From the NCBI GenBank assembly GCA_049999805.1, contig JBNGIO010006255.1, forward strand, positions 618,922-645,831: a stretch of 26,910 nt of DNA, read 5' to 3'. The first letter of the stretch is position 1, and the number at the start of each line of letters is the position of its first letter. Positions 1 to 24,000 of this stretch are shown here, one piece after another. The position numbers were made by a program, and so were the translations under genes. The notes under the pieces were generated by a model that was not told where the DNA came from, did no database searches, and worked only from the letters and a program-made list of their open reading frames with translations. The stretch is from Folioceros fuciformis. Its lineage: Eukaryota.

Positions 1-3000
1 GCTTGGCCTCTTGTAATGCTTCCTCTAAGGTTGGTNNNNNNNNNNNNNNNNNNNNNNNNNNNNNNNNNNNNNNNNNNNNNNNNNNNNNNNNNNNNNNNNN
101 NNNNNNNNNNNNNNNNNNNNNNNNNNNNNNNNNNNCTTCCTCTAAGGTTGGTTCAGATTTTTCCTCGATATCGGGGTTGGTGCCAAAATCCTCCATGGCA
201 AGTTGAGTATCGAAGTCCCTCTGCTCACACAAAAAAACTTTCAAGGATCAGAGAGCATGATGTGCAGAGAAGAAACTGGGCAACATGGACCAAAACAGAC
301 ACACTTACTCTGAACTTCAGATCAAGAGCTGATTTAGTAGCTTCCTCTGCATCACCTATCTCCATCTTCTTGTCTTCCTCAAACGTAAGCGCCTTGCTGA
401 CATCCGACTGCTGGCGACCTCTGCTGCTAGGGACAGTCCGTCTCCCTGCTTGTTCTCCAACACTTCTGGCTTCGCCAGAAGCTGACGGCCCGAAAGCAGC
501 TCGCTTCCTTTGAGCCACAAAACCAAATTCCAAGAAACTGTTCAGTCTACCCTTGCTGCTGCGCTCACCACTGCTGACCTTCGGCACTATATCCGTTCCT
601 AAACCCTGCCTTGCTAGATTCTGTTGAAGAATGTTCATAGCACGTTCGACGGCAGCATCTGAATTCAGCGTGACTGTTTTTGGCGATTCAACGAGTACTC
701 TCTTTCTTTCCCTGCCAGCTTCATCAAGCGCTCTGTCTTTCTCTGCTCTTTCCAACAAGATGGCACTCGCTCTTTCTGCTGCTTCCTTTGGCGAAAGTCT
801 TTGCCTCACTGGAGGAGCCTTTGGAGTGGCCGGGGTTACAGATTGAGGAGGTCGGGTGAAAGAACTGACTCTCGGGGATCTTGAAGATGGCCATTGAGCA
901 CGTTGGTCTACCTCCGTAGTTTTGGCCACTATTGCCCTCGCCCCCTCTGCTGACTCCGCTGCATCACCTGTCGCTATCCTGAGCTCCACTCCTTCCAACA
1001 CATTTGAAGTTGCACTTCCGCCTACTTCCTCTTGGGGGGGTTTCTGCCATATATGAGGGGCCGCTGTAGCTTTACCTCGCCCTCTGCCAAGTCCAGGCCT
1101 CACATCTAGGCCATGACCAAACAAAGACAAAGGAACAAATGAACTTTTTGTGCTCTCTCCACTATCAAGTGCCAACCTGGTTCCCCTCCCTCTGCCAATT
1201 CCAGGTTTACCATCAGAGCCCAATCCCAATGGAGGATGTGCCTGACCTCCACTGAGGCCACCAGCCACTTTCTGCTCTCGTGGTTGTTCACTGGGGATTG
1301 ACTCAGGCAATGCCTGCCCTCTTCCAATCCCCTTTGATACTGGCAGAGACTGGCCTCGTCCCGCACCTGAAATGTCGCCAAACTTCAAGTCAGGTAGAGA
1401 CTGACCCCGTCCAACACCTGATGTGTCAACGAGGCCCAACGCAGGCAGAGGCAGTGCCTGGCCTCGCCCCGCACCTGTTTTGTCACCAAGGCCCAACTCA
1501 GACAGTGGCAGAGCCTGGCTGCGACCAGCACCTGAGCTGTCACCAAGGCCCAGGTCAGGCGTAGGAAGAGCTTGGCCCCGTCCAGCAACTGATTGGTAGC
1601 CCAAGCTCAACTCTGGCAAATCTTTGCCTCTCCCAAAGCCAGGCTTGTCAACAGGGACCTGGCTGCTAAGTGCAGGGTCAGACATCTGAGGTGGCTCGGT
1701 AATATCAGCTGATTTGAAACCCAACGATGCGGAGTCAGAAGGTGGTTTTCCGCCGAATTCTGAGGTGAAACTGTCCGAAGCTGGTAATACCTTGCCTCCG
1801 CCCAACCCAGGTTTGCCCTGCTGTACTGAATCAGGAGTAGACTTGGAGCTGACAGGAGAGGAAGGACTTTCCGAAGCAGGGACATCATACGTAACTTCAG
1901 GTGATGCCGGTCTCGTGATAGCTGCTTGTGGAAGCTGAGCCTGCGGCTCAGCAGGTTTGACTGGATGCAACTGGGGCATGGGTCCAGGTGAGGCCGGTTT
2001 TCCAGATGTAGATTCAGCAGGTCTCAATCCAGCTAGTGGTTCCATCGACAGACTGACAGCCGGCCTCGCCTTTGATTCACCAGGCTTGACAACAGGGAAA
2101 GGTGAGACTGGCCTACTTGAAGACACCTGAGGCATCCATTCACCTGTCTCAAATGGCCTGAAGTCGGCAGGTTTGATAAGAGGCAGAGGCGAGACCTGCT
2201 GTGCTGGAGGCGCATGCGACCACTCAGCTGGCCCTGATTCAACTGCAGGCTTTGCCCAGGTGGATTGCCACTCCGACGGTCTTGACTCTGTATGATCCAC
2301 TCGAGATGGTAATCTCACGGAGTCAGTGAACACTGGACTGGGCCTGGATGCCGGGACTTGAGACAGAGACCTTGGATGTCCATCATACACAGAGTAGGGC
2401 AGGGGCGATTGCATGCTGGACGGATGCTGGTATGGACCACCAGCTGGACGCGACGAGGGAGGGGGCGAAGTAGCCTCACGTATGCCCTCAGCCCGCTGCA
2501 CAACCACTTGTCTCATTTCTTTGAACACTTGGTCAAGCTTGTCCAGTTGGCCAGTCTGAGAATATGTCTCCAGAAGCACATTATATGTTGGTACCTCAAC
2601 TGCAATCTGCATCTTCTTCATTTCATTGAAGAGTACCTCCACCTCATGCAGTCGTCCTTCTCTAAAGTTTGATTCAATTAATTGAGCAAAGTCTTTGCCA
2701 GGCTGAGCATCCTGTGATGGCCATGCCGTTCTCCCATCAGGCATGCCTGTACTCATCTTAGGGCGAAGCACATGAGAAGCAGCATGCGCTTGTTGCAGTG
2801 TACCTGGAGCTTGAGACAACAAGCTTGCTGAATTGGAAAACTGCCATTCTTGCTGCTGTGGCCCTGGAAAGGAGGTAAATCCTTGGAATGGAATGTTGTT
2901 CTGGGGAAGGGGAAGTCCTTGCAGCTGTGGAGACCCAAGATTCTGACCTTGAGAAGGCACACTGCCCTGCGCAGATGGCAACCCTGGTCCCTGTGCACCT

Positions 3001-6000
3001 GGAAATACCTGTCTATGTGCAATTGGGAAGCTTTGTCCCTGTGCAGAAGCAAAACCCAAATCCTGCACAAATCCCTGACCCTGTGCAGGCAAAAACTCGT
3101 GACCTTGCACAGGCATAAATTGCCCTTGAGAAGGCACAAATCCCTGGCCCTGTGCAGTCACAAATCCATGGTTTTGTAAAGGCAGAGGTACGAGTTGCCC
3201 TTGGACAGGTACGAATGCCTGACCTTGAGCAGAGAAATATACCTGGCCCTGTGCAGGCACAAATCCTTGGCTTTGTGCAGGTACGAATCCCTGGCCCTGT
3301 ACAGGCACGAATCCCTGGCCCTGTGCAGCCACGAATCCCTGGCCCTGTGCAGNNNNNNNNNNCACGAATCCCTGGCCCTGTGCAGCCACGAATCCCTGGC
3401 CCTGTGCAGCCACGAATCCCTGGCCCTGTGCAGCCACGAATCCCTGGCCCCGTGCAGGCACGAATCCCTGGCCCAGTGCAGGCACGAATCCCTGGCCCGG
3501 TGCAGATTCAAATCCAGGTCCCTGTGCAGGCACAAATCCCTGACCCTGCGCAGGTACGAATCCCTGACCCTGCGCCGGTACAAATCCCTGACCCTGCGTA
3601 GGTATAAATCCTTGGCCCTGTGCCAGCCCAAAACCATGGCCGTGTGCAGGCCCATGCCCCAGGCCTTGTGAAAGCCCAGCTCCCTGGCCTTGTGAAAACC
3701 CAGATCCCTGACCATGTGCAGGGACGAACCCTTGTCCCTGCGCAGACACAAAACCCTGCCCCTGTTCAGGCCCTAAACCTAGCCCCTGTGCAGATCCAGA
3801 ACTTTGCCAATGTGCAGATCCTGAGCCCTGGCCTTGTGCAGGCACAAAACCCTGCCGCTCTGCAGGCCCAAAGGACTGCCCCTGTGTAGATCCAGAGGCA
3901 TGACCCTGTGCAGGCACCAAACCTTGACCCTGCGCAGACAGGAAGCTTCCGCCCTGTTGGGATCTAAGACCCTCCGAAGAGAGAGAATTCTGACCCTTAC
4001 CTTGGGAAGACATCGAAGCCTGTCCAAAACCATCCCCTTGTGCAGGCTCAAAACCCTGACCCTGTGCAGACCCAGAAGTATGCCACTGTATAGATCCAGA
4101 GACCTGCTCTTGCGCAGGCACAAAACCCTGCCGTTGTGCAGGCACAAAACCCTGACCTTGGGCAGACGGGGAGCTTTGGCCCTGTTGGAATCCAAGACCC
4201 TGGGAAGGCACCAAATTTTGACCCTGACTCTGGGAAGACACAGGGCCCTGTCCAAACCCCTGCCCTTGTGGAGGCCCAAACCCTTGCCCCTGTGCAGCCC
4301 CTGAATTCTGCCATTGTGCAGATCCAGAGGCCTGCCCCTGTGCAGCCCCTGAATTCTGCCATTGTGCAGATCGAGAGGCCTGCCCCTGTGCAGCCCCTAA
4401 ATTCTGCCATTGTGCAGATCCAGAGGCCTGCCCCTGCGCAGACACAAATCCCTTACCCTGTGCAGAAGGGAAGCTTTGGCTCCGTTGGGATCCAAGAGCC
4501 TGTGGATGCACAAAATTCTGGCCCTGACCTTGGGTATGGGAAGACACAGAACCCTGTCCAAATCCCGCTTGAGGCACGAAGCCCTGGCTCTGTGCAGGAA
4601 CCGAGCTGTGGCTCTGCGCAGGACTGAAGCGTTGGCTCTCCACAGAACTGAAACCTTGATTGTGTGCGGGACTGAAGCCTTGACGCTGAGCGGGAAGGAA
4701 ACCTTGGCCTTGCGCAGCACCAAAGCCCTGGCCTTGAGCAGGAAGGAAACCTTGGCCCTGTGCAGAAACAAATTCTTGACCTTGCGGAGAAAGGAATGCT
4801 TGACCCTGATCAGAAACTGATTCTTGACTGCGTAGAGGGGTGAAGCCTCGACCTTGTGAAGGAACGAATCCTCCAACCTGGCCCGACGCTAATCCTTGAC
4901 GCTGTGGGGAAACGAAGCCTTGAGAAGAGACAAATCCTTGACCCTGAACAGGAAGGACGCCCTGGCCCTGACCCTCTGCAGCCAAATATCCTGATCCCTG
5001 CGCAGGGACGACAAATTGCTGAGCCCCTTGATGAACATTTTCCTGCCCGTGCGCAGGTCCAAAACCCTGGATTTGCGAAGGCCGAAGCACGTGACCTTGA
5101 GAATGCTTGAAAGGAAGGCCGGACGGATCGGACCCCTGCTGAAGTCCAGAGGGGGCAGCAGGAGCTGCCCCCATAGACTGAGCACCATCTGTCCTGGGCT
5201 GGACCTGTTGCACCCAGCCACCACCCCGGCCTCCACCCTGCCAATGCGCATCGGAAAATGTGGAAGAGTCAGGAGGCGCCGCATTCCCGTTGCTAGGGTN
5301 NNNNNNNNNNNNNNNNNNNNNNNNNNNNNNNNNNNNNNNNNNNNNNNNNNNNNNNNNNNNNNNNNNNNNNNNNNNNNNNNNNNNNNNNNNNNNNNNNNNN
5401 NNNNNNNNNNNNNNNNNNNNNNNNNNNNNNNNNNNNNNNNNNNNNNNNNNNNNNNNNNNNNNNNNNNNNNNNNNNNNNNNNNNNNNNNNNNNNNNNNNNN
5501 NNNNNNNNNNNNNNNNNNNNNNNNNNNNNNNNNNNNNNNNNNNNNNNNNNNNNNNNNNNNNNNNNNNNNNNNNNNNNNNNNNNNNNNNNNNNNNNNNNNN
5601 NNNNNNNNNNNNNNNNNNNNNNNNNNNNNNNNNNNNNNNNNNNNNNNNNNNNNNNNNNNNNNNNNNNNNNNNNNNNNNNNNNNNNNNNNNNNNNNNNNNA
5701 GCGGGTAGTACTCGATTCAAAGAACCATTCTGCCGCTGCGCCTGCGCCTGCGCCTGCGTGGCCTGGCCAAATCCCGGGGTCTGCGATCCTCCAGCAGCCC
5801 CAGGAAAGGGACCGCCGCTCTCCCAAGGCTGCCGCTCCGGTACGGAACCTCCTCTCCCGATAGAGCTAGGAGGGGCAGGAGCTCCCCGCCCTCTGCCACG
5901 ACCCACACCGCCAAGCCCATCCTGCACCTGATGCTGATGCTGCTGCAATGGCTGGAGAAAAGGAGCAGAATCGTTGAAGGGCTGGTACCCCCGCTTGGTC

Positions 6001-6062
6001 CCCAGCCCCAAAAGCTGCCGGGCAACGACCCGGCTGCCTAATGCTCCTCGCCCCCAGTGCAT
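1..6062 (-). CDS. Giant low-complexity mitochondrial-type protein (>1,900 aa, 3'-truncated): QG-rich repeats, 2 PPR motifs, GRG repeats and an At1g53645/mS84-like C-terminal segment
   Basis: First ATG at 6062 (MHWGRGALGSRVVARQLLGLGTKRGY, Arg-rich with no acidic residues). One stop-free exon 6062-309 crosses N gaps 5300-5699 and 3353-3362. A phase-0 intron 308-221 (GTAAGT...GCAG) follows. The exon from 220 reads RDFDTQLAMEDFGTNPDIEEKSEPTLEEALQEAK, resembling the '...DF.xNPDIDEKPPxxLxxxLEKxKPF' segment I recall from the At1g53645 family. Confidence 0.75.
36..135. other. Assembly gap (100 N), probably artificial
   Basis: 17 identical bp flank the gap (19-35 = 136-152). Confidence 0.85.
1300..1645 (-). 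repeat. Degenerate coding repeat of up to ~60 bp (GRGQALPxxxLGLGDxSGA)
   Basis: About six GRG[QK]xLP units, spaced 11-20 aa apart in the translation. Confidence 0.8.
2510..2693 (-). other. Two tandem PPR (pentatricopeptide) motifs within gene 1
   Basis: DFAQLIESNFREGRLHEVEVLFNEMKKMQIAVEVP-TYNVLLETYSQTGQLDKLDQVFKEMRQ fits the 35-aa PPR consensus (TYNxLIxxYxxxGxxxxAxxxFxEM). Confidence 0.85.
3130..3620 (-). repeat. Coding 24-bp tandem repeat (octapeptide AQGQGFV[P/A])
   Basis: The unit cacgaatccctggccctgtgcagc is near-perfect from about 3285-3505, with degenerate flanks. A 10-N gap at 3353-3362 leaves copy number unresolved. Confidence 0.95.
4284..4436 (-). repeat. Coding 48-bp tandem repeat x3 (AQGQASGSAQWQNSGA)
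   Basis: Three near-identical copies of gcccctgtgcagcccctgaattctgccattgtgcagatccagaggcct. Confidence 0.95.
5300..5699. other. Assembly gap (400 N) inside gene 1
   Basis: Run of N. Confidence 0.99.
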
Positions 6063-8511: not shown

Positions 8512-8872
8512 CGTACCTCCTGGAGCTTGAAAGAACGTGCCTGCTGAATTGGAATGTACTCATTCTTGCCGCTGTGGCTCTGGAAAGGAGGAAGGGGAAT
8601 TGGAATGTTTGTTCTAAGGGCAGAGGAAAATCTTGGCTCTGCGAAGACCCTAGTTTCTGACGTTGATGAGGCAAAAAGCCCTGCGCAGACGCTAAACCTA
8701 GACGCTCCCTGTCTGACTCTGTGCAACTTGGAACCTCTATCCCTGTCCAGAAGCACAACCCAAATCCTGCACAGAGTTTTAACCCTGTCCAGACTAAAAC
8801 TCTTGACTCTCCACAGGCATAAATTACCCTGGGTAGACACAAACCCCGGGCCCTGCGCTCATGAAGCCCTGA
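8512..8872 (-). pseudogene. Decayed partial duplicate of gene 1 (copy of about 2800-3172)
   Basis: Collinear nucleotide similarity, e.g. tggagcttga...gctgaattggaa...cattcttgc.gctgtgg..ctggaaaggagg and caaatcctgcaca...acaggcataaatt. In the homologous frame there are TAG, TAA and TAG stops and small frameshifts. Confidence 0.85.
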
Positions 8873-10555
8873 CAATTCCATTGCCATCGGCTCTGCTTGA
8901 TCGGGTCTCCGAGTCATGCCTAAACTCCGCTTGAGGGAACAGTGAAGCATGCTCGAGATCCGGTCGTGCAGCACAAGTACGCTGAGCTAAAGACATTTCT
9001 GTGAAGGCAGCGATGCTGGCATAGGCCTGCACACCGCTAAGCTCCATCTTTAGAGCACTTCATCTTGACATTGCAGTTGTGGGCTTCTGTGAGCATGTAT
9101 GATGCGCAGTCCTTGCCTGATTGCCTCCAACAAACCGCTCAAGCTCTACTTGGGAGCTCCGATGCAAACACTGACAGTGAAGATGATCGTCAGCCTTCAA
9201 TTTGGGATATTACCTGGGATGAGAAGGACGACAACGCCTGCGGTGGGATCGGAGTGGACTGTAACTCCTGATCGCCACGTGCAAGGGCTGGGTTATTCTC
9301 GGGCTGGGCTCTGGTGCATATTCCTGGAGTCACTGGCTACGCATAACCCTTCAACAATGACTTATTTGGCCAGCTCCAAAGCATGCGGCGTTCTCTTGGA
9401 CACATCGTCGAACAACTAGTTCCTACATACCTGATGCGAGATCAACAGTTTGATGGGCCTGACATGGTTGGATCTGTCCGGCTGGGAACCTTCTGTAATG
9501 AGACGTTGAATGGCATCAATTTAGAGAAGTTGCGCTGTGGCTGCACAGTGGTTGCCAAGCACACTGATGAGTACCAGAGCGATCGGAAACGAAGGAAGTG
9601 CTGGATTTGACACGAAACCTCCCTGTACAATGTAACGAACCTGCCGTCACATATCCAAGAACCCGAGGACGCGTACATGCAGAGTACCCGAGGACTAGAG
9701 TTCCGATGCAGCTCTTTGCAATGGCCAATTTCGATTGCAGGCCTAGGCTGCAAGTCTTCTCCCAGTAGGACTCAGTCTGGTAACAGAGGCGCGTATGATT
9801 CAGATTCAGTTTCTGTGATGGCCAACTTCGCAGAATCCGATCGGGAGAAGTGGGTAAACAGTTTCTGTGATGAATTGAACACAAGGCCACGACGACTAAG
9901 GAAACGTGTCTTGTAACAGGAGCTGGCTGCTTCCCTGCAGCCATAGAACAGAGAGAGCAGAACGACCAACACTCAAGCTCATGGCCGATGGTTCGCGGCG
10001 GTATGAGCCCACCGCGTATACTCTTCGATAGGGGGTTGCTTAGAAAACGACAATGGGGACACGACGTCGCACGGAAGCCTGGAATTGGAGCGCCATGTCC
10101 TACCATACCCTCGTCAAGCTAGCTAGCTCGAGACGTCTTGTCTGTCTGCCATGGAATGTGACGTGTTGAAGATTACGTGAGGACCTTGACATCTTCCCCG
10201 GAAGAAAGGTGCTTTTGCATGCCGAATCTAGCATGTGCTGGATTAACCAGGTGACACATCATGCATTGGCAAGTGATCGAGGAGAAATCCAACTCGATCA
10301 CTGCGCCGGTGACAATTCGACACGGCGTCAACATGGCATTGCGTCAACCACTTTACAACGATGAGACAACAAGCCCATGAACTCCTTAAAAGGCAAACCA
10401 GATCTGGCTTCGGAATCATCGCACAAGCTGTTGGCACCTCAGCTAGACCAGGTGATCTTCAACACTCAGTCTGCTACATCAAACTGGCACTTCCTGATTG
10501 CAACATCAGATTTGGCGGCAAGGATACCTGTGTAACTGCAGCGACGAAGTTAGCC

Positions 10556-12854
10556 ATGTCTCCTGCCAAGGGTCTCGTCTTCTTGTGGCTTACGTTGTTC
10601 CTAGGCCTGCTTCTACAGCCTTCCTGCTCCAGGCTTGCTTCAGCAACTGGTAATACGTTGTAAAATTCAAGCTGTGATACGTAGCTGCAGCAGCTAGCTT
10701 GCATGCATGTGGTTAGTGCACTATTATGTGCCACTTGCGATTGGCAATACCCCCAGAGGCTTGAAATTTGTCTCATGAACACGGTTGCCTGGCTGGTATG
10801 CATGACATTGTGTGGCAGGAGGACCATGTACAGCAGTAGAGCAGGCGAAGATCGTGGATGTGCGCAGCGCCAGCGACATTCTTACTCGCACCAACTACCC
10901 CAACACCCAGACCGTGATTCTCAGGCTGCAGAACGACATTACGGTGTCCCAAAGCATCCAGTTCACTGAGAAGTACCAGTGCACCATCTTCAGATCTGCG
11001 ACTGGAAACCAAGGACTGGGATTCAACGTTTCCACGGCTAACGACTCCGTCCCAGCGATCCTGATCTGGAACACCAACAATGTGCTCATCCAGAACGTTG
11101 GGTTCCGTCTCCCTGACCAGGAAACGTATGCGAACTGCTCCACCACGCTGCCCGATGGCGACTCTGACAATGCCAACTGCCCAGCAATTTCTGTGTTCTC
11201 GTCGTGGGGAGTACAGATTGTCCAGGTACCAACGCAGTCATTCAAGCTCGCTAGGCTAAGCCGTGATCCGCATGATTAAGGTTCTGAGCCGTACCTTCCG
11301 TTCTTTGTCTCACACCCCGCTCAATGACATGCGCGCTGGATGGATATCTTGACAGGCAACTATTCATGGACGGATGGACGTCTTGAGAACCAACCAGACG
11401 CTCTTGGACTCGTTGCTCATCCTGACAAAGCTCTCCAATTTCGCTGCGGTCAGATTGAGCTACAATGGCGATGGGCCAAACCTGCAGAGATCTGACGTCG
11501 TCATCTCCAACAGCAGGATCTACGGCAGTACGGACGGCATAATTCTCTACAGGTTTGTACATGATATTCCACAAGTTAAGGCTTAGCGGCGAGTGAATCC
11601 TGTAAGCACAAACAGCTCGCTCCTGGACTCACTCAAAGCATGCAATGGTTCCATGATCGTCACAACAACAGGCAGACAGTAGGAGTGACGATCGCCAACA
11701 ACTACCTGGAGAACAACTTCTTCACAGCCATCCAGTGCGGGAAGAACGCACACAACGTAGGCGACTGCATGCTCACCAACATCGTTAACAACTACATCCA
11801 TGTCACTCCTGGCTTCAACACCACAGCGGATTCCGGCAGCATCTACTTCGACACCCATTGGGTGAACCCAGGAAACCGCCTCTCCTGCAACTACATCATC
11901 AACGGCGTCCACTGCATCTACTTCGACTGGGCTTCCTCCGGAGTGATTGTGGAGGGCGGAGCGTGCTACAACACCACCAACGGCGTGAAACTCAACACCG
12001 GCAAGAACAACCAAGTTTCCAGCCTGGTGGTGGTGGAACCTAGCTATCAGGCCGGCTGGATCAGCTGCCAGAACTACGACATCAACAACTGCGCCCTCGA
12101 CCCCGGCTCGTTCTGGGAATCCACAAGGATTGCACAGTACAACTCCGCCGCGATCCAGAAGGTTAGACCTCCGTTCCGTTCCGTCCCTTCCCTTTCCTCG
12201 CCGTTGCTTAAGTCCCCTACACTATTCCACATGATTGTCGCCAATTTGCGGCTCCATCCACTGCAGGCCTACCCCTACCTCACGAACTTCTGCGCTCGAA
12301 CCTCCATCAACGGCATCAACTGCAACCCTCCCGGCACCGAGCCCACGGCCGCTGTCACAGGAAATTGCAGGTAACTATCATATTCCGTATTCCGCGTGCC
12401 ATTGGGAACTGTTTAAAACTCTCTTGGAGAACCAAGACCAGGTAGCGAGATCGAGAAGCAGAACTGATGCTCATTTCTCGACTCTGTTGGACGATGCAGT
12501 GGGATTCCGACAGAGAACAGCTTGCGCATCACCGTGGTGGACCCGCAGCGGTACAACAAGTCCCTTCCCGCGTACTTGGCCAACTGTGACGGGCTCCAAA
12601 GCGTTCCCAACCTCAACACCATCTCCTACGACGTGTATGATGCTGAGCAAGTCCAGTTTCTGAACGAAGGCGCCTTGGACTTCGGCGTGCAACCATCTTC
12701 GGTCGTCTACGACAACGAGCCAGGGTTCAAGAGTTGCCCTCGATCGGCAGTTGGTGTGAAAGCTGTCAACTCCACCTTGTACGCCGCTCAGTTCTTCAAC
12801 TCTCCCCGAGAAGAGGGTTTCTGGGAGAACGCGAAGTTCGTTCCTGCTCTGTGA
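10556..12854 (+). CDS. Secreted right-handed parallel beta-helix (pectin lyase-like fold) protein, 548 aa, 6 exons
   Basis: Exons 10556-10649, 10819-11225, 11356-11552, 11672-12161, 12267-12370 and 12500-12854 are all GT-AG and phase-compatible. Signal peptide MSPAKGLVFLWLTLFLGLLLQPSCS. Asn-ladder repeats: NNVLIQNVGF, DVVISNSRI, GVTIANNYL, NIVNNYI, DSGSIYFD, IYFDWASSGVIVEG. Many N-x-S/T sites and Cys residues. Confidence 0.8.
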
Positions 12855-14812
12855 AACCATGGTACTGTTCCCGCTCCGTATTATAAACTTAGTTCCTGAA
12901 TCCTTTTTATATTTGACGATTTTATATTTACCCATACGGGGAGTAAATAGAAGCATGTAAAAACTGAATTAGTAGCAGTAGCTACAAACTCCTTGTACAT
13001 ATAACTTTTAGCCTGAGGGCAAATCGTTATTGAAAGTACATATTCTCTTATCCGAATTTGGGAACGTCTCGGGAAAGTTCTGGCGCCTGCGTCCCCGGTC
13101 CATATGGCGCTCCTGTGGAAGGAAGATTTTGAGACCAGAACCTTGCAGGCTGGCTGTGAGGAGCAGTCCCCCTTGTATGTATTGGGAAGCTCGGTCACTA
13201 TCTTACAAGGATATCTGCAGTGCTGCACGAGGAAACCTGATATCAGATATGAAAATTTGTAATGGCAAGAAACTTTGGAAACGGTTGCGTAGCAGAGTGG
13301 AAACATGGTGTGGAAAAGTTGAAACCGAGGCTTCGCACGTTGAGAGCGAGATGCAGACTACATCGGCTGCATCCGTGGAGTGTGAATTGGTAGCCACGGG
13401 ACAGCAGTTCCGGACCTGTCGGCTTCCACTCTCAGATGCTGAACTGAGCTCGCTAGAAGAAGGTCGGCTGTGGGAGCATGAGAGGGGCTCCCAAGCTGCA
13501 CACGGATGGGAAGGCAAGTAGATGTATCTCTGAGGTTGAGGTCCAGGATCAACTCCGTTGCCCCGGAGATTTCATTAGCAGTAGAGTAGCTGGCTCATCG
13601 TGGTTTATGCTTGGAGGAGTTGTGAAGTCGAACGTCCTCTCGCAGCAGAGCAGTTGGATTTATTCCTAGCTGTACATCGTAGTCTTCAACCTAAAACAGT
13701 GTTGCGGTAGACGCTTGGTTTCGAACTTCCCAGCGCATTGCCGGCATGACGGACGTGACCTGGATCTTTCAATGCGTTGTTGATGTTGCAGGCGGCGGAA
13801 GAGATCGACCGAATAATCAGATGGACATTTTTGTGATCGAGTCGCCTAGGAGGAATCAACATGATAGTAGGAGGTGCGCGCTTGCTTTGTGTTGATTCCA
13901 CCACTTCTGTTTAGAACGATTGTTGCCGAAATGGCTCCAGCCGTGACTGACGTAGCTGTTCCAGGAATTGAAGAACAGGACACAACTACACGGCAACAAG
14001 CAATGGAAGACGTGTGGCCTGTATGCTTCTTCCGGCCGACATACCGCACCTCTGACCAGGGCACCATGGCCTGTGGGCATCTTGTGACACAGTGATGAAT
14101 ATATGAGACGTACGACGGTGCTCTCAAGTGTCTGCGTGTTTAGCGTCAGGCAATCCTAGTCTTCACGGCTCTGGTGCTTCGACATCGACATCCCAGTTGT
14201 AAAGCTGGATCATAACTTTTGTTGAAGTCATGTCCGTCCGACAGCGAGCCGATGTAAACCAGTAGGAACTATGCAGCTGCTTTCCTAGGGCTTTCAATAC
14301 TCATCAGTATTGAAAAACCAGTCTGATGCACATGGTATGCCCATACCACCTGTACTTTTGTTTTCTTGTTGTTTATGATTGTTATTAGGTGTACGCATCG
14401 GTTTTTGTGGTTTGTTTTCTCCGAGTCCCGAACACATTTGCATTAGCCAAGGCATTTGACAGTCAGCATGGAAGAGTCCTGTGCGGAAGGCCGAGCCACA
14501 CATCTGGCAGTCTCTCATGATGAAGTGAGGGACGCCATGGCCCCACAATGCATGATACGGAGCACAGTGCCAAGTCGGGGCGCTGGGCTGAAACGCGACA
14601 ACTCCTGTAGATGATGCATGCTGCGGGTGTCCGTCAAGAGGCGACTTTAAATTCGGCGCCTAGTCGCAATCGGTGCCATAAAGATTCACCGGGCCCCTCG
14701 GAGAATTTCAGGTGGAACGAAGGGGAAGCTTCCTGGCTCTGGCAGGCAGCGAATCTGTGGAGCCTGGAGGCCCTTTCCCCTTCCCGCATCTGGCTGGGCT
14801 CACACTGTTGAG

Positions 14813-15763: not shown

Positions 15764-16323
15764 GCAACTCCCATGCCTGTTTTTCGAAATGCTAATTCTG
15801 AGACGACGGTAGGTGCACGACGAACAAAATGTGCCGTCGTGTAGCTACATGTTCCGCAATTTTGAGATCTTCGTTGTTGAGGTACTCACTGGATAGTTTG
15901 TCACATTGTTTTTGTCGTCCTCAGCCTGTTTAACCTGAAGCTGAGAGATGAGCCGTCTTGTAGCTCGTCGAGACACTTTCATCATTCTTTCCCCAGCGAA
16001 GGGACATTTTTTTTTGTGGCGCTGAGCCAGAGTTTCCTTGTGGGTGGGCCAATGGGATTTGAAGCCTGCTTGTGCCTGTTGTAGTGTAGTACCTCGACGT
16101 TCCAGTCATTCCAAATAAATGTACAGTAACGGTGAGGGCGAGACACCGCAATCCTCTAGTCTCCTCCCCGTTCCCAGGAGGCTCATGGTACAGATAGCTT
16201 CTACTGCGCTAACTAGATCTTTCCTACCGTATTTTCACAAGCTTCGAGAAGGAACACGCTGCGCTTGCCCACTGTCAGCGACATGCATGTTTAGCCTAGG
16301 CACAACTTATGAAAGCAACCCCT

Positions 16324-19300
16324 TCAGGTCTTGTACTTCAGAGATGATTTTTCGAATCCAATCGTGGGGAATTGCTTGGCGAAGGCTTCAACCTCATGCT
16401 TCAAAGATGCTATTTCCTGTTTGACGTCCGCATTCGTCTCAACAGCGGTCTTGAAATCTTTCAGCTTCGGGCCTGCGTTCAACCGGAGAGAGTGACTGCG
16501 GAATCAGCTACCTCCACAGACGAAAACACCAGCAGGTAACAAGACTCTTTAAGTTTCACACCTGAAACAGACTTCGCTTTCACAGCGATCTGTACGGCAC
16601 GGTCAAAATATTCAGCAACTTTCTCGAAGTCCTCCTCAGTGAAGCCTCTTGATGTCAAGGCAGGGGTTCCTGGGCCACCCAAGTTCCACAAAACATCAGG
16701 CTCCTTGCTCTATCTAACACTGCCCTGAGGTACGAACTACTTCATCAGTCAGCCCAACACCAACAGAACGCCATAGTATCGTTGCTATGACAACTTGGAA
16801 GCTCACCCATACGAATGCCTCCCGGAACCATCGCAGACACATCTCCAGGAACTGTGTTCTTATTTGCTGCAATGTGGGCCAGTTCCAGTACTCGCTCTAC
16901 TCTGGATCCATCTATACCCTGCACACAAGCGGGCAACCACACACCAAAGCACCATCAGAGTGCTGCGCTGATATGTACGACACCAGTCCCTGATGCATCA
17001 AGACTGGGAGTCAAAAAAGAACATACCCTGCTTTTCAAATTCACCAGGACAAGGTGGTTGTCTGTGCCACCAGAAACGAGCTCATAACCCTTTGCCTGTA
17101 AAGTCTGCACACAAGTTCACCAAAAAAAAACCGTCTCAGTCCAGAAGCCCTCGGTCAACGTATCACAAGGCAGGACAGGCCTCTAACTATGAAAACAGGT
17201 GCGTCTGCACAATACTTTAGCAAATTGGGCGCAGTTATTGAGGACTTGCTCCTGGTATGCTTTGAATTCTGGTGTGCCAGCCTGCAAAACATCAACACCA
17301 GGAGAAACGTACTGGTGAGCAACACAGGCATTACCAATAAATAATTCTAAAACCTTCAGTGACAACAGGCTGACCTGTTTCAAAGCAACAGCAAGCCCAG
17401 CGATTGTATGGTTATGGGGGCCACCCTGAAGTCCAGGGAATACTGCAGCATTGATCTTGTCTTCAAAATCATACAGCACCTGGTCAATGCAACTCATCAT
17501 TGACTTTACTGTCGAAGGTGACTGAGTTTCTGAACGAGTGACCACATAAGCCAGAGAGAGGTAGGAAGACAATTGTGGAACGTTAAAACAGACCTCTTGG
17601 CCTTGCTTGTTCACTTCCTTCACACCCTTCCGGAAGAATATCATAGCACCCCGAGGGCCACGAAGAGATTTGTGAGTGGTGGTTGTCACAATGTCGGCAA
17701 ATTCAAACGGTGACGGGACAACACCAGCCGCCACTAGTCCACTGATGTGAGCCATGTCTGCTAGTAGGATAGCCTTGTGCTTGTCAGCCACCTGCCTTAT
17801 GAAACCACACAAGGACAGGTGCGGGAAGGCATGTCTGTAAGGACAGGTTCGCGGACACAACTTCCCCAAATATTCTGCTTTCACATTGCTTCAAACACCA
17901 TCTCTACCTTGCGCATCCGTGCATAATCGTAGTGGCGAGAATATGCACTGGCTCCAGCCACAATAAGTTTGGGTCTGAAAAGTGCTGCAGATTTCTCCAG
18001 CTGCAGGGCATCCAAGCGCAGGTTCCAGTTCAACTTGAGGTCCGCTTGCAAAGGAGACTGAGTGACAAGAGAGGTTCAGAAACCAACATGGGCATACCTG
18101 ATCATAATCAATGACGCCAGTCTCCTCATTCAATCTGTAAGGCATAGTCTCAAAGAAAATGGAAACTGCTGAGATCTTCTTGGTATCCGTCTTTTGACAC
18201 AGAGGGGACGATTACCCAATTTAGAATACAGAAACAACGAGGCCTAATGCTGACAGGTCCCCAAGAGAGACCACGTGAATGGGGTTTTCAACACTGCTGA
18301 GACGATAGCACAAAGAATGTACGAGGGACAAACCTGATATCCATGAGATAAGTGGCCTCCATGTGGCAAATCTAGAGCCATGATCCGCTCATGTGGCTTC
18401 AGCAAGGCTGTGTACACTTGAAAATTTGAAGGGGACCCTGACAAAGACTGCACATTGACTGCAGCAGAAACGAATTTCCAGAATCCATCAGTACAGTCTC
18501 TTGACAGGGCTTTACCTGGCCACGAGCGAATACGCAGCCACCAGAGATTTGCCAGAGGTGGCATTAGTTCAACATCTAACCTCCCCATTTTGCTGGGTCG
18601 AGCCTGAAGGCCTCCAGTGCCCGCTTCTGGCAGAGGCTCTCTGCCATATCAATGAACCTGCGGACACAAGCAACCAGAGCGCATGGTAAGTGACGGGTAA
18701 CATGATCAGAGAGGCTCCGGCATCCTTTAGAGCGGAGACAACATGAGGAACTTACTCATTGCCTCCATAATACCGTGCACCAGGATATCCTTCACTGTAT
18801 TTGTTTGTCATCACCGACCCTACGGCCTGCATAACTGAGGAGGAGGTGAAATTTTCCGACGGAATGAGCTCCAGTCCCTGATGCACAATCCGAACAACGA
18901 AACCCAAACACGATCAAGTGCTGGGCCAATTGTATACATTTCCGCGAGGAGTTGCACCATGAAGCTCCAATTCGTATCAAACCTTCCATTGCCGATTCTT
19001 CTCCAATTCTATAATGTCGGCCATCTCCGGATCCACCTCTTCCAAAGGAGCATTAAGCTGCTTCGGCCACTGCGCGGAAAAGCTGGTTTAAAACATGTGC
19101 ACGGCAACCGCTATGCAGTGGCCTCAAGACAAGCAACAAGAGGGGTGAGAGGCACGCACAGTCACGTGCGACCTTTCCTTGATGTTCTCGAACCGTGCGT
19201 AGTCTTCCTCGTTAGCCACCGCAGACTGGACAAGAAGACGACCGAGCCAGAACAGTCTCAGATTTGGGTCCAAAGCAACAAAATTTGATCATCGCCCATC

Positions 19301-20746: not shown

Positions 20747-21039
20747 GATCAACACAGACGGCACAAAAATACGAAGCTGACGACGCCGGTTACACACACT
20801 ATATATCCGTCTAGGTCTACAAAACCAATTTTGGCGGGTTTTACGTCCAGATATGGGCCGTGAGGCAAGGATTGCGTAGGACTCAGGTTGATCTCTTTGT
20901 GGATTGCGATGCACAAATTCTGCATTACCGGCCTGGGCGACGTGATGGTCGACTGGATGCTGCTGTAAGCGAGCAGGGTCCAGGAGAGAGGGAGGCAGGG
21001 AAGGAAGAAGGCAGGCAGGGGAGGTCTCAGAGGACGGCC
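20747..21039. promoter_or_regulatory. Short bidirectional promoter region between COX16 and DnaJ
   Basis: 293 bp separate the divergent ATGs. TATATA lies near 20800 and TGGGCC at 20854-20859. Confidence 0.55.
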
Positions 21040-24000
21040 ATGGCCACCACAATTCTAGCACCCGCAATGCCGTGGACGACTTGTGCCTGCACGCCCACGT
21101 CCTGCTCCAGCACCTGCGGCAGCCAGAGGAGAGTGACCGGTGGCAACGCCGGTGCTGTGAATTCTGTGCTGGCTTCTGGAGCCTCCCTGCACGCTGCCTC
21201 TGCCTTCGCTTTGTGTGGTCGGGATTCAGGGCACGTTTCCGTGTCGCCCCAATACGCGCCTGCGTTTGGCGGTGGCGTGCGAGGGAGGCGGCAGAGGAGG
21301 CAGCTGAATGTGCATTTTGCATGGAAGGATTCCGGGAGTGAGGTGGGTGTGGGCAAGAGGAGATCCAGGGAGATGGACATTGCTTGTCAGAGATGGAGCG
21401 CTTTGTGTGGAGGTGGCCCCAGCTTCTTGTTGGGCGATGGTTACCTGTGGACCAGTTTTTGCAGCAAGGTGCAATTTGGTTCGGGAAGGCGTGGAATTCG
21501 GTCCTCATTCAGACCACAAGTGTGTATGTCTGTCGATTACTACTCCACTCTCGGAGTATCCAAGGGTGCTAGCAAGCAAGAGATCAAATCGGCTTACCGC
21601 AGATTGGCCCGTCAGGTACCCGAGCCTCATTTCCCCGGAAAGATGTGAGGCTATGGCTGCCAGTCCCTGCCTGAACATTTCACAATGTGCACCACATTTC
21701 TTCAACAGCAGGTCCTCCACGCCCTGTTACCCAATGGTCTGTGTTTAGAAACCTGGTTGATTGTATGCAGTATCATCCAGATGTAAACAAACAACCTGGA
21801 GCGGAGGAAAAGTTCAAGGAAATCAGTAATGCCTATGAGGTATCCTTGCTACTTCGATCTTCAGCGTTTAGAACTGGCAACCATTTAGCTGCCTTTCTGT
21901 TATGCTGTTCGAAGTATGCCACGATGTGGTGTAGCCTCCCTCAGATACGAATTTGCAATTGTTTGAGGCACGACATGTGCGCGTCTGCAGGTGCTCTCAG
22001 ATGACGAGAAAAGACCTCTATATGACCAGTTTGGGGAGGCAGGAGTTAAAGCTGGCGCAACAGGACCCGGAGCTGCTGCAGCAGGAGCATATGCTGTGAG
22101 CTCACTGTAGAAGTTGCTGGCTAGAAAGATAGCCTCATCAGTCATGGAGTCCATGATTGCCAACTCTCTTCTTGTGGGATGGTCAGCCTGTTCCAAGAAG
22201 CATGATTGGAGTCTCTGACAACAGTGTTTTGTTCTCGTGCCATGCAGACAAACCCCTTCGATCTGTTTGAATCCTTTTTTGGGGGCAACATGGGAGGAAT
22301 GGGTGGCATGGGTGGCATGGGAGGCATGGGAGGAATGGGGGGGATGGGTGGTTTTGGAACAGCACGCAAGCGCTCTGCTGCTGCGCAAGGTGATGACATA
22401 AGGTATGGCATTAGCTTTATTGAAGAGGGTAGTGCAGTTTGTAGTGGACGATGGGATGGCAACCTTGTGCTCGACGGCTGTTCACAGGTTGGGTGAATTT
22501 CGGGCTTGATGCATCCATTTTCTGCACGTGCAGGTTTGACATCTCTTTGGAGTTTGCTGATGCTATTTTTGGAGCGGAAAAGGAAATCGAAGCTTCGCAT
22601 CTGGAGACCTGCCGAACATGTGATGGGAGTGGCGCCAAAGCAGGAACAAGTAGCAAAACCTGTCAAACGTGTGGAGGGATGGGACAGGTGATGCGGACAC
22701 AGGAGACGCCTTTTGGCAGGTTCTCACAGGTGTGTTTCAGGCGTTTGTTGGCAGCTGAGGGCCTCGCATGTCATACTTGCATTGCCTACTAGTATGTATA
22801 CCCCTTTGTTTTTTGTGAGTGTGATGTGCAGTAGACTGCATCTGGAGCCTCATGATCATACCCTTATTTTGCTGTTTTGACATTGAGTCTGACCGGGGCT
22901 ATCGATAAGATACTGTTATCGTGAATTCTTCTGCGGTTTAGGTTTCCACTTGTACAACCTGCGGGGGTGAAGGTGAAGTCATCTCAGACTATTGCAGAAA
23001 ATGTGGTGGAGAGGGGCGGTTGCGGGTGAAAAAAAGCATAAAAGTGAAGATCCCTCCTGGTGTTAACAGCGGGAGCACCCTCAGAGTTCGAGGTGAAGGA
23101 GATGCCGGTCCAAGGGGGTAAGTTCTTGGTGGGCAATCCAAATCGTATCATTCATACCATAGTAGTGGATGTGATGCATCATGCCAAATTGTGTGTTTCA
23201 GTCTGTCGTTTGTTGCCTACCGTGTGTGCAGGGGGGCCCCTGGAGATCTCTATGTCTTTCTGAATGTAAAGGAAGCTCCTGGCATCCAAAGGGATGGCAT
23301 GGACTTGTACTCCACGGTGGCAATTAGTGTCACTGATGCTATTCTTGGGACAGTCATTCAGGTTATTTGTGCATCGATTCTCTCCATTTTTTGCTAGTTG
23401 GAAGAGAATGGATGTTGGCATGCTTTGTGTAGACTTTCAGGAGCATTCTATTAGAATCCTCCACTGACAGGTGATCTTTGATCCATAGGTCAAAACCGTG
23501 GAAGGTGTCACTGATCTCCAGATACCCTCTGGCACACAACCAGGTGATGTCCTTGTGATCGGAAGACTTGGGGTGCCAAAATTGAATAAGCCATCGGTTA
23601 GGGGCGACCACTATTTCACAATCAAGGTCACCATTCCGACTCGCTTGAGGTGCGTACCTGTTTTATCTTCAACTTATTGCTGGGCATGGTGCAACAAGTC
23701 TTGTACTGGAATAAGACAACTAATCTGCTTTGCTGTTTAACCTCAGTGAAGCGGAGCGTGCACTTGTGGAGAGCTTGGCAAACTTGCAACATAGGGCCAA
23801 GGGTTTTCGGGGAGGTCAATGGATGAACACGAACAGCAGGCCTCAGCGTAAGAAGAGTGTGCCGTAAAGCCGCAATACCACTAGTGCTGGAAGGGGCATG
23901 TGATTACTCGAGGGAGAAAGAGCAGAAAGAGTATTGGCATCTCCCTGAGCTACCTGGGTCTAAGATAGCAAAAGTCTAGAGCTGTTACATAAAGCTTGAA

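Follow-up and report, generated by a model that had tools for sequence, protein, structure and literature searches.

In the cauliflower mitoribosome, the C-terminal part of mS31/mS46 forms the head protuberance together with uS3m and mS35. The N-terminal stretch of the protein, about 300 residues, is unresolved and faces the solvent by the mRNA entrance. The accessible text of that report names this N-terminus as a possible player in mRNA recruitment (PMC12672651). Plant mitoribosomes recruit their mRNAs without Shine-Dalgarno signals. For human mS31, the available part of one account describes an N-terminal helix-turn-helix pair that docks LRPPRC (bioRxiv 10.1101/2022.06.20.496763). The plant subunit mS84 is listed as AT1G53645 in the accessible sections of PMC6953067. 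The locus described here lies in a window of 26,910 nucleotides from Folioceros fuciformis (contig JBNGIO010006255.1, here C6255, positions 618,922 to 645,831), in which a first-pass annotation had proposed an mS84/At1g53645-type subunit with two PPR motifs and a giant repeat arm.

Gene structure and family identity

The mS31/mS46 gene is genuine, spliced and present in a single copy. It lies on the minus strand, and its frame, starting with the ATG at 6062, has no stop codon up to the donor at 309/308 (window coordinates). The 3' end of the gene lies beyond the left window edge, with exon 2 extending to C6255:618875, exon 3 at C6255:618793-618608 and exon 4 at C6255:618518-618444. A genome search gave a single match to the gene, in an assembly that may be incomplete. 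The neighbouring carrier protein had no match in the protein collection. The features of the locus are:

5700..6062, minus strand: exon 1, 5' part, with ATG 6062, a presequence-like first ~35 residues and GRGRGRG at residue 54 as in orthologues
5300..5699, no strand: 400-N run within the presumed exon, outside transcript coverage
2883..5075, minus strand: Q/G/F low-complexity arm, residues ~330-1060, with the 10-N gap 3353-3362 inside it (TRF, composition)
2490..2699, minus strand: PPR pair, P-type, isolated, residues 1122-1191 (Pfam, predicted fold, leave-one-out profile)
1653..2489, minus strand: Pro/Ser-rich linker, residues 1192-1470 (P 19%, S 18%)
963..1652, minus strand: GRG-repeat region, holding a 57-nt (19-aa) unit repeated 3.5 times at 1392-1593
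309..962, minus strand: exon 1, 3' end, with two copies of the short helix motif of the family (797, 668); the conserved region begins here
221..308, minus strand: intron 1, 88 nt, GT..AG, skipped in the X1 contig
1..220, minus strand: exon 2, start of the mS31/mS46 anchor domain, containing an artefactual 100-N gap at 36-135 with a 17-nt duplicated flank
8519..8858, minus strand: decayed partial duplicate of exon 1 outside the gene, a copy of 2803-3155 (end of the Q/G/F arm)

The duplicate was 74.6% identical to exon 1 over 358 nt, with 9 gap openings (E 1e-57).

The first-pass annotation had joined the PPR pair to the C-terminal domain in one spliced frame, and a single RNA contig from run X1 linked the two via all three predicted introns. 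The in-frame intron at 308-221 was excised exactly in this contig, at the GT..AG boundaries that had been proposed. The contig also skipped 117 letters at the 100-N gap, the flanks of which repeat 17 nt. The gap was therefore regarded as an assembly artefact, and the exon 2 peptide that had been read through it was correct. Run X1 was the only one of three listed runs to contain the stretch, and among the listed runs none was recorded as RNA. The contig begins at window position 3179, within the 24-nt array, and farther 5' the gene model follows the genome sequence alone.

The large first exon, originally described as one exon of about 5.75 kb, has the open frame that this requires but crosses a 400-N run (5300-5699) and a 10-N run (3353-3362). 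Because these gaps interrupt exon 1, the length of about 2,050 residues is an estimate, and 138 of the 2,054 codons of the predicted protein are unknown. The reading frame was consistent over both runs, although for the 400-N run agreement by chance would occur in 1 of 3 cases. The 5' piece is probably linked to the rest of the gene across this run. We consider it very unlikely that the piece above the run belongs to another gene or follows a different splicing pattern, giving a protein shorter than about 2,050 residues. The transcript evidence stopping at 3179, inside the array, would allow such a division, as would a 50-aa HMM from 17 N-termini, which failed to single out the 5' piece or tie it to the family. 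However, the sole in-frame upstream Met codons are at 6062 and 5174, and the former is followed by the N-terminal motif of the family and by a GRGRGRG motif. The frame from 5297 to 3365 contains zero stop codons, and the same 24-nt repeat array resumes beyond the 10-N gap (TRF). A 10-residue motif derived from nine N-termini of seed-free plants ranked ATG 6062 first among 346 ATG-started window segments with a score reached by none of 2,000 shuffles, in a test devised after the match had been seen. The first 35 residues, in the piece beyond the 400-N run, contain five R/K and one acidic residue, which fits a presequence composition.

The gene almost certainly encodes the only mS31/mS46 of the mitochondrial small ribosomal subunit in this plant. 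Exon 3 alone matched PDB 9EVS_X (E 5.8e-7) and the family profile matched the same chain with an E of 4.7e-103, in agreement with the subunit type first assigned; the family is the mS31/mS46 of the cauliflower structure. The spliced C-terminus was 39% identical to a Marchantia protein over 266 residues (E 1e-43), with residues 1797-2052 aligning to Marchantia P0001 321-578 over the splice junctions. The names mS84 and mS31/mS46 probably denote one family. Fold searches used the anchor of a moss-type protein, P0008, as a stand-in for the protein of the window, and the match to mS31/mS46 in the ribosome structure ranked first both in Foldseek (E 4.8e-7) and in VIA (Z 11.9, rmsd 5.2, 127 aligned). 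The match of the anchor fold to mammalian mitoribosome chains AY/Ah/Y, which we take to be mS31, was weak (Foldseek rank 2, E 0.34; VIA Z 7.2). Searches by sequence found no algal or animal mS31, a weak negative. Among streptophyte orthologues the predicted protein formed its own deep branch without a firm placement, with 74/47 support for a position beside Selaginella; placement with liverworts, moss or Zygnematophyceae was not rejected (p-AU 0.13, 0.09 and 0.42 respectively). A search with the end of exon 1 against proteins of 1,776-5,000 residues scored 0 of 745 candidates, a weak negative for close relatives, and one with exon 3 against proteins of 110-2,000 residues gave three matches, all liverwort, among 164 candidates, also a weak negative.

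The PPR pair and its distribution

Both PPR motifs of the first-pass annotation were recovered by Pfam at 2699-2490, with PF01535 scoring 33.2 bits (cut-off 25) and PF13041 scoring 31.6 bits (cut-off 30). The model of the pair consisted of four helices in a PPR-like fold, with a pLDDT of 85-90 over residues 11-70. The best Foldseek rows were designed PPR proteins with rmsd of 0.7-2 Å, none at E 0.001, and human mS31 was not among the listed rows in these searches, a weak negative. A profile built without this sequence gave the pair 65.6 bits, compared to at most 29.3 bits for the 75 other domains that were scored in this genome, from five PPR loci. With phmmer the pair matched moss at 44 bits and ferns at 33-42 bits, against 33.3 bits or less for other PPR tracts of this genome.

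At positions 5 and 35, motif 1 carries the code residues A/E in this protein, V/S in moss and D or E/S in ferns, and Selaginella has G/T and A/S. Motif 2 varies across lineages at position 5 (N, S, D, G, Q or R); here this residue is N, with no clear position 35. Among six moss-type proteins the code positions are nearly invariant. The canonical codes are TN, TD, NS and ND, with 'DS' and 'RS' binding no base, according to the accessible text of PMC6468296. The pair has neither the array length nor the canonical 5/35 residues of a sequence-specific P-class reader, and RNA binding in the form of sequence-specific reading is doubtful because there are two motifs only and the code residues vary by lineage. 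The region containing the pair has a net charge of -3 here.

The pair was found in orthologues from Physcomitrium, Ceratodon, Selaginella and Adiantum, with weaker matches in Mesotaenium (4-7 bits) and Closterium (13 bits). A lineage-specific gain of the motifs, as first suggested, is contradicted by the orthologous pair that moss, Selaginella and fern proteins carry in their N-terminal arm. The pair was present in 8 of 8 library representatives of at least 800 residues, by a profile built from seven of those eight, compared to 0 of 31 representatives of 380-799 residues, a set made up largely of angiosperms, with Marchantia and one moss-like protein. No pair was present in the proteins examined from angiosperms and Marchantia/Riccia or in four moss-like ones, the latter being transcript-derived and thus possibly splice forms instead of losses. 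This absence points to repeated, clean loss of the pair along with about 300 flanking residues. Since several lineages survive without the pair, it is dispensable or replaceable. The pair is orthologous in moss, Selaginella and ferns and is under strong constraint. Identity of five moss-type proteins to P0006 was 87-91% in the pair, 85-87% in the anchor and 53-59% in the N-terminal arm, and the same comparison in fern-type proteins gave 53-68% against 21-36%. The module was probably already present in the land-plant ancestor, and probably earlier, with several losses in angiosperms, Marchantiales and some mosses. The first-pass annotation had allowed that the architecture might prove common and already described; the pair does occur in other seed-free plants, but no description of PPR motifs in mS31/46 or mS84 was found in the literature searched, which was largely open-access. 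Three supplement files of PMC12672651 gave no match to mS31 or At1g53645.

The Q/G/F arm

The Q/G/F repeats of several hundred residues, the Pro/Ser linker and the GRG repeats noted earlier were all confirmed by TRF and composition. The arm consists of degenerate 24-nt/8-aa units of the QGQGFVPA type (TRF), with higher-order duplications of 48, 96 and 228 nt. Its composition is 21% Q, 21% G and 8% F, the spacing between aromatic residues is exactly 8 in 35 of 69 cases, and it is nearly uncharged (charged fraction 3.4% over residues 600-1075). No Pfam family matched the arm, and in the Atlas the best score was 0.77 with no real match; the moss orthologue likewise gave nothing useful. GRG motifs were present in every orthologue arm tallied, numbering 14 here compared to 7-9 in liverworts, with arm disorder judged by composition only.

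The giant arm had been presented as special, but long arms are common in seed-free plants (proteins of 855-1,274 residues) and it is the Q/G/F expansion that is special. Among the proteins compared, the octapeptide arm of about 730 residues and the length of about 2,050 residues are the sole features peculiar to the F. fuciformis genome, and by itself the giant arm is a curiosity, possibly neutral. The arms of ferns are aromatic-rich as well (F+Y+W 8-9%). The tether between the pair and the anchor ranges from 340 to over 800 residues among orthologues. Two models were rejected as measures of arm length: Closterium P0038 (2,110 residues), which is joined to a DEAD-box helicase, probably through a fusion of gene models, and Mesotaenium P0007, which has a long exact internal duplication.

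Possible function and comparison with known systems

By analogy with human mS31, the pair may act as a docking module held on a tether close to the mRNA entrance, most likely for a protein partner, a reading that we prefer at a little under even chances. After import the C-terminal domain would anchor mS31/mS46 on the small-subunit head and the remainder would form a flexible tether, with the four-helix PPR module lying 340-800 residues away from the anchor. Since two motifs whose code residues vary cannot select a sequence, protein docking is most likely. The module would pack on the helical solenoid of an mRNA-carrying PPR protein, or on a head protein, which would help to deliver mRNA into the entry channel. 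The GRG repeats may weakly hold RNA. The Q/G/F arm would be a recent tandem expansion within an already low-complexity arm, and the regular spacing of its Phe residues could allow self-association, although the arm may be neutral.

The near-invariance of the code positions within mosses counts against docking, as it also fits direct contact with RNA. Such contact, at low sequence specificity, with mRNA near the entrance, in line with the first-pass idea, or with a head rRNA expansion segment, in the manner of known ribosomal PPR proteins, is fairly unlikely. It would suit a true PPR fold with Pfam scores above cut-off, and the available text of two reports places the arm near the mRNA entrance (PMC12672651) and has plant rPPRs mostly binding rRNA expansions (PMC6953067). 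However, two motifs would read at most two bases, the code residues vary by lineage with some combinations reported not to bind in the accessible part of PMC6468296, and the charge of the region is negative. We regard as unlikely a fixed structural or assembly piece folded back on the head protuberance (uS3m, uS10m, mS35) with the linkers looping out. In mosses the pair is conserved as much as the anchor, the anchor had a 621-residue Polytomella mitoribosome chain as one of its best fold matches, and in Polytomella a head protuberance has its core built from extensions of mS31 and uS10m, according to the accessible text of PMC9576764. A mobile module is nevertheless a better fit to the clean repeated loss of the pair with its flanks, to the variation in tether length and to the duplication of the pair in Selaginella.

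Most unlikely of all is that the arm links translation with RNA editing, or that its condensates sort edited mRNAs, with arm length tracking editing load. This genome contains at least 150 DYW domains (488 candidates), and the longest credible arms occur here and in Selaginella and ferns, which edit heavily and of which the ferns share the aromatic-rich composition; the Marchantiales have neither the pair nor editing. On the other hand, angiosperms edit hundreds of sites without the pair, Zygnematophyceae carry the PPR tract with little or no editing, and few lineages are independent.

Returning to docking, a broader scenario, which as a whole we hold to be speculative and improbable, would give the land-plant ancestor an mS31/46 with a two-PPR arm for mRNA hand-off, packing onto incoming PPR-mRNA complexes as a counterpart of human mS31-LRPPRC. 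Angiosperm loss would then explain the empty disordered arm of solved plant structures, and arms in heavy-editing seed-free plants would have independently gained repeats with aromatic stickers, clustering ribosomes with PPR-bound mRNAs. What the analysis shows is that the arm of mosses, a lycophyte, ferns and this genome contains a folded and strongly conserved PPR module, absent from angiosperms. Physcomitrium carries this module and is amenable to precise deletions, which makes the role of the arm directly testable. Proteins labelled 'uncharacterized' or 'titin-like' can also be given a probable identity on this basis.

The plant mS31/mS46 of PDB 9EVS/9EVT/9GYT (chain X, 496 residues) shares with the Folioceros protein the anchor domain, a basic presequence-like start followed by GRG, a GRG-rich disordered arm and a short conserved helix motif ahead of the anchor. 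The Folioceros protein is about four times longer and has the Q/G/F arm of ~730 residues and the PPR pair, which was absent from all 31 representatives in the size class of chain X (380-799 residues). The same architecture occurs in the uncharacterised Physcomitrium XP_024390674.1 (855 residues) and a Ceratodon orthologue (864 residues), in Selaginella moellendorffii XP_024528739.1 ('titin-like', 1,274 residues), which has two PPR pairs, and in the uncharacterised Adiantum KAI5066484.1 (1,225 residues). These seed-free streptophyte orthologues, including the Mesotaenium and Closterium models, share the presequence, low-complexity arm, PPR pair, GRG linker and anchor, but are shorter, with different repeat units that are P/Q/Y/W-rich in ferns and Selaginella; none of the names returned for them was a mitoribosomal annotation. 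Human mS31 (MRPS31), with mS39 and LRPPRC-SLIRP, likewise lies on the head near the mRNA path and has a flexible N-terminal region in which two helix-turn-helix motifs dock a PPR protein (bioRxiv 10.1101/2022.06.20.496763). The available part of that account does not describe its helices as PPR motifs and has separate proteins as PPR partners; no sequence similarity to human mS31 was found. PPR motifs near the mRNA path are also found in the mitoribosomal proteins rPPR1-10, described in the accessible sources as long PPR arrays, and in mS77, described there as a ribosome-anchoring N-terminal part with a PPR domain at the mRNA exit. The Folioceros protein differs from both in having two motifs on a disordered tether, on the entrance side.

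Gene structure, transcript and subunit identity

The window spans C6255:618922–645831. A minus-strand frame without a stop runs from 6176 to 225 of it, with its earliest methionine at 6062 in the frame scan. N runs break this frame at 5300–5699 (400), 3353–3362 (10) and 36–135 (100). The open frame would fit the one long exon proposed in the first-pass annotation, with the 400-N and 10-N runs inside it. The gene continues left of the window, where exon 2 ends and exons 3 and 4 follow, and the predicted protein has 2,054 aa, 138 of them undetermined letters. Exon 3 gave a single match in the genome search.

One of three listed sequencing runs (X1, an RNA run by the tool's guess) contained 0.96 of the sampled words from window 136–3350. 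Its transcript-like contig (5,862 letters) was compared over C6255:618200–622100, window −721 to 3179, and showed no differing letters across five main pieces. The contig omits 89, 81 and 88 nt, the three predicted GT..AG introns, which indicates an origin in spliced RNA and agrees with the in-frame splicing proposed earlier across the 88-nt intron; it also omits 117 nt, made up of the 100-N gap and a duplicated 17-nt flank. It starts inside a 24-nt array and covers the PPR pair and the C-terminal mS31/mS46 domain (the anchor) unbroken, placing both in one gene as had been claimed, on a contig that comes from one run and is not equivalent to a single molecule.

The C-terminus had been read as mS84/At1g53645-like, mS84 being listed as AT1G53645 (PMC6953067) and probably the same family as mS31/46. 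That identity was supported by the match of exon 3 to the plant mS31/mS46 chain X of PDB 9EVS (E 5.8e-7; runner-up E 0.75) and by Marchantia, where the alignment spans aa 1797 to the protein end (39% over 266 aa). Since this match begins in exon 1, that exon belongs to the mS31/46 gene by homology too. Exon 3 was 58–62% identical to Marchantia and Riccia proteins. For a modelled moss-type anchor, not the window protein, 9EVS chain X ranked first in Foldseek and VIA-align, with mammalian and Polytomella mitoribosome chains next at weak scores. The mS31/46 subunit itself is already known: in the cauliflower structure it shares the head protuberance with uS3m and mS35. There its 300 N-terminal residues, without resolved density, are directed to solvent near the mRNA entrance (PMC12672651 and its preprint).

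Distribution and age of the PPR pair

A profile from three liverwort proteins retrieved 105 representatives at E ≤0.001, of which 60 contained the anchor and 39 of these were at least 380 aa long. The pair was present in all eight anchor-bearing representatives of at least 800 aa and in none of the 31 of 380–799 aa; the pair profile was made from seven of those eight plus the window sequence, and the independent checks are therefore weightier. Pfam PPR scored over its cut-off in the moss protein. Matches below the cut-off came from Selaginella, from Mesotaenium and from three fern-type proteins, and the two Closterium models gave none. The window pair as sole query gave 44 bits with moss, 33–42 with ferns, 15–20 with each Selaginella pair, 13 with Closterium and 4–7 with Mesotaenium, the top other PPR tract of the same genome giving 33.3. 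Against a profile made without it, the window pair scored 65.6 bits and the other 75 domains at most 29.3.

Among named entries the pair is present in Physcomitrium, Ceratodon, Selaginella moellendorffii (two pairs), Adiantum, Mesotaenium and Closterium, and absent from two Marchantia, Riccia and nine angiosperm entries. The roughly 30 hits with a species name included no gymnosperm, hornwort, Chara or Klebsormidium protein. In four moss-like orthologues (P0005, P0132, P0136, P0137) the pair is missing together with about 300 residues around it, through either independent loss or alternative splicing, and these proteins serve as natural deletion controls. The lineage-specific gain claimed in the first-pass annotation is contradicted by the moss, Selaginella and fern orthologues; from these sequences, the simplest reading would be one origin in the land-plant ancestor or before, followed by repeated loss, the Zygnematophyceae share being less secure.

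Several models deserve separate comment. The S. moellendorffii protein P0011, annotated 'titin-like', is in fact an mS31/46 orthologue with tandem pairs at aa 165–233 and 248–316. A DEAD-box helicase joined to mS31/46 in Closterium (P0038) and a long exact internal duplication in Mesotaenium (P0007) both appear to be likely annotation or assembly errors.

Trees set the window protein on a separate deep branch that falls in none of the clades of mosses, liverworts, ferns or angiosperms, without placing it firmly. The genome encodes at least 150 DYW domains. LCIB, reported among land plants from hornworts only (PMC8075897), gave two matches over cut-off, in two pieces on one contig (G000:C1919:3950–4891), where contamination is possible; these matches serve solely to mark the clade. 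On these signs a hornwort is the probable source.

The PPR-bearing form was not found in the searchable literature, so that the earlier proviso of a published description found no instance there; subscription papers lie outside its reach and could possibly hold one. The word PPR is absent from the main text of a pan-eukaryotic preprint (10.64898/2026.10.06.756942), and passages from PMC8998825 and PMC12916500 contribute nothing further on such a form. Some databases tag PPR domains on moss orthologues without a ribosome link.

The Q/G/F arm and neighbouring genes

Residues ~330–1060 are 21% Q, 21% G and 8% F, nearly uncharged, and are encoded by degenerate 24-nt units with higher-order duplications; spacing between aromatics is exactly eight in half of cases. 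Pfam and Atlas searches found no protein family or look-alike for the arm. Fern arms (550–610 aa ahead of the pair) are also long and aromatic-rich but built of other repeat units, so what recurs is low complexity, not the sequence itself. Part of the arm DNA recurs nearby in decayed form, a sign of local duplication. Self-association of the arm through Phe is one possibility, and neutrality is another.

Further features of the window
8519–8858, minus strand: decayed partial exon 1 duplicate (copy of 2803–3155; 74.6% identity, 9 gap openings), ~2.5 kb upstream of the start codon
14813–15763, plus strand: intronless mitochondrial carrier gene, an ordinary neighbour
~16100–19300, minus strand: serine hydroxymethyltransferase gene, an ordinary neighbour
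~20800–23000, plus strand: DnaJ gene, an ordinary neighbour

A multi-exon plus-strand gene at ~10313–12968 encodes an Asn/Cys-rich, probably secreted protein that looks beta-helix-like by eye; three of its exons had no Pfam family at E 0.01. An F-box/phloem protein 2 (PP2) gene (L002:7488–8815, minus) lies on the same strand as the mS31/46 gene and starts less than 1 kb past its stop. The X1 contig extends ~2.2 kb beyond the left end of the compared span toward this gene, suggesting either possible transcript overlap or contig fusion.

Possible role of the pair

Among moss-type proteins the pair is 87–91% identical, compared with 85–87% for the anchor and 53–59% for the N-terminal arm; the fern-type values are 53–68% against 21–36%. 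The predicted fold has four helices and resembles designed PPRs. Base specificity is set by PPR positions 5 and 35 (PMC6468296), and in the pair these vary among lineages, are chiefly non-canonical and are nearly invariant inside mosses. By its identity values the pair is constrained; by this residue pattern it appears not to be a base reader, with two bases the maximum for two motifs. Direct contact with RNA is considered rather unlikely. A fixed structural role, for which the Polytomella mS31 extensions, ordered pieces of the head protuberance (PMC9576764), provide a precedent, is rather improbable, and a coupling to RNA editing would be very unlikely.

Docking of a protein partner by the pair is the favoured role, by analogy, at a little under an even chance. 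The disordered N-terminal region of human mS31 takes on an ordered form with two helix-turn-helix motifs; these dock the PPR protein LRPPRC and pass mRNA on to the channel (bioRxiv 10.1101/2022.06.20.496763). The pair lies 340–800 residues from the anchor, and a four-helix PPR module on an arm aimed at the mRNA entrance would suit such a task. Fold and sequence searches detected no homology to the human helices, and it is by its N-terminal helical docking module that human mS31 is the candidate counterpart.
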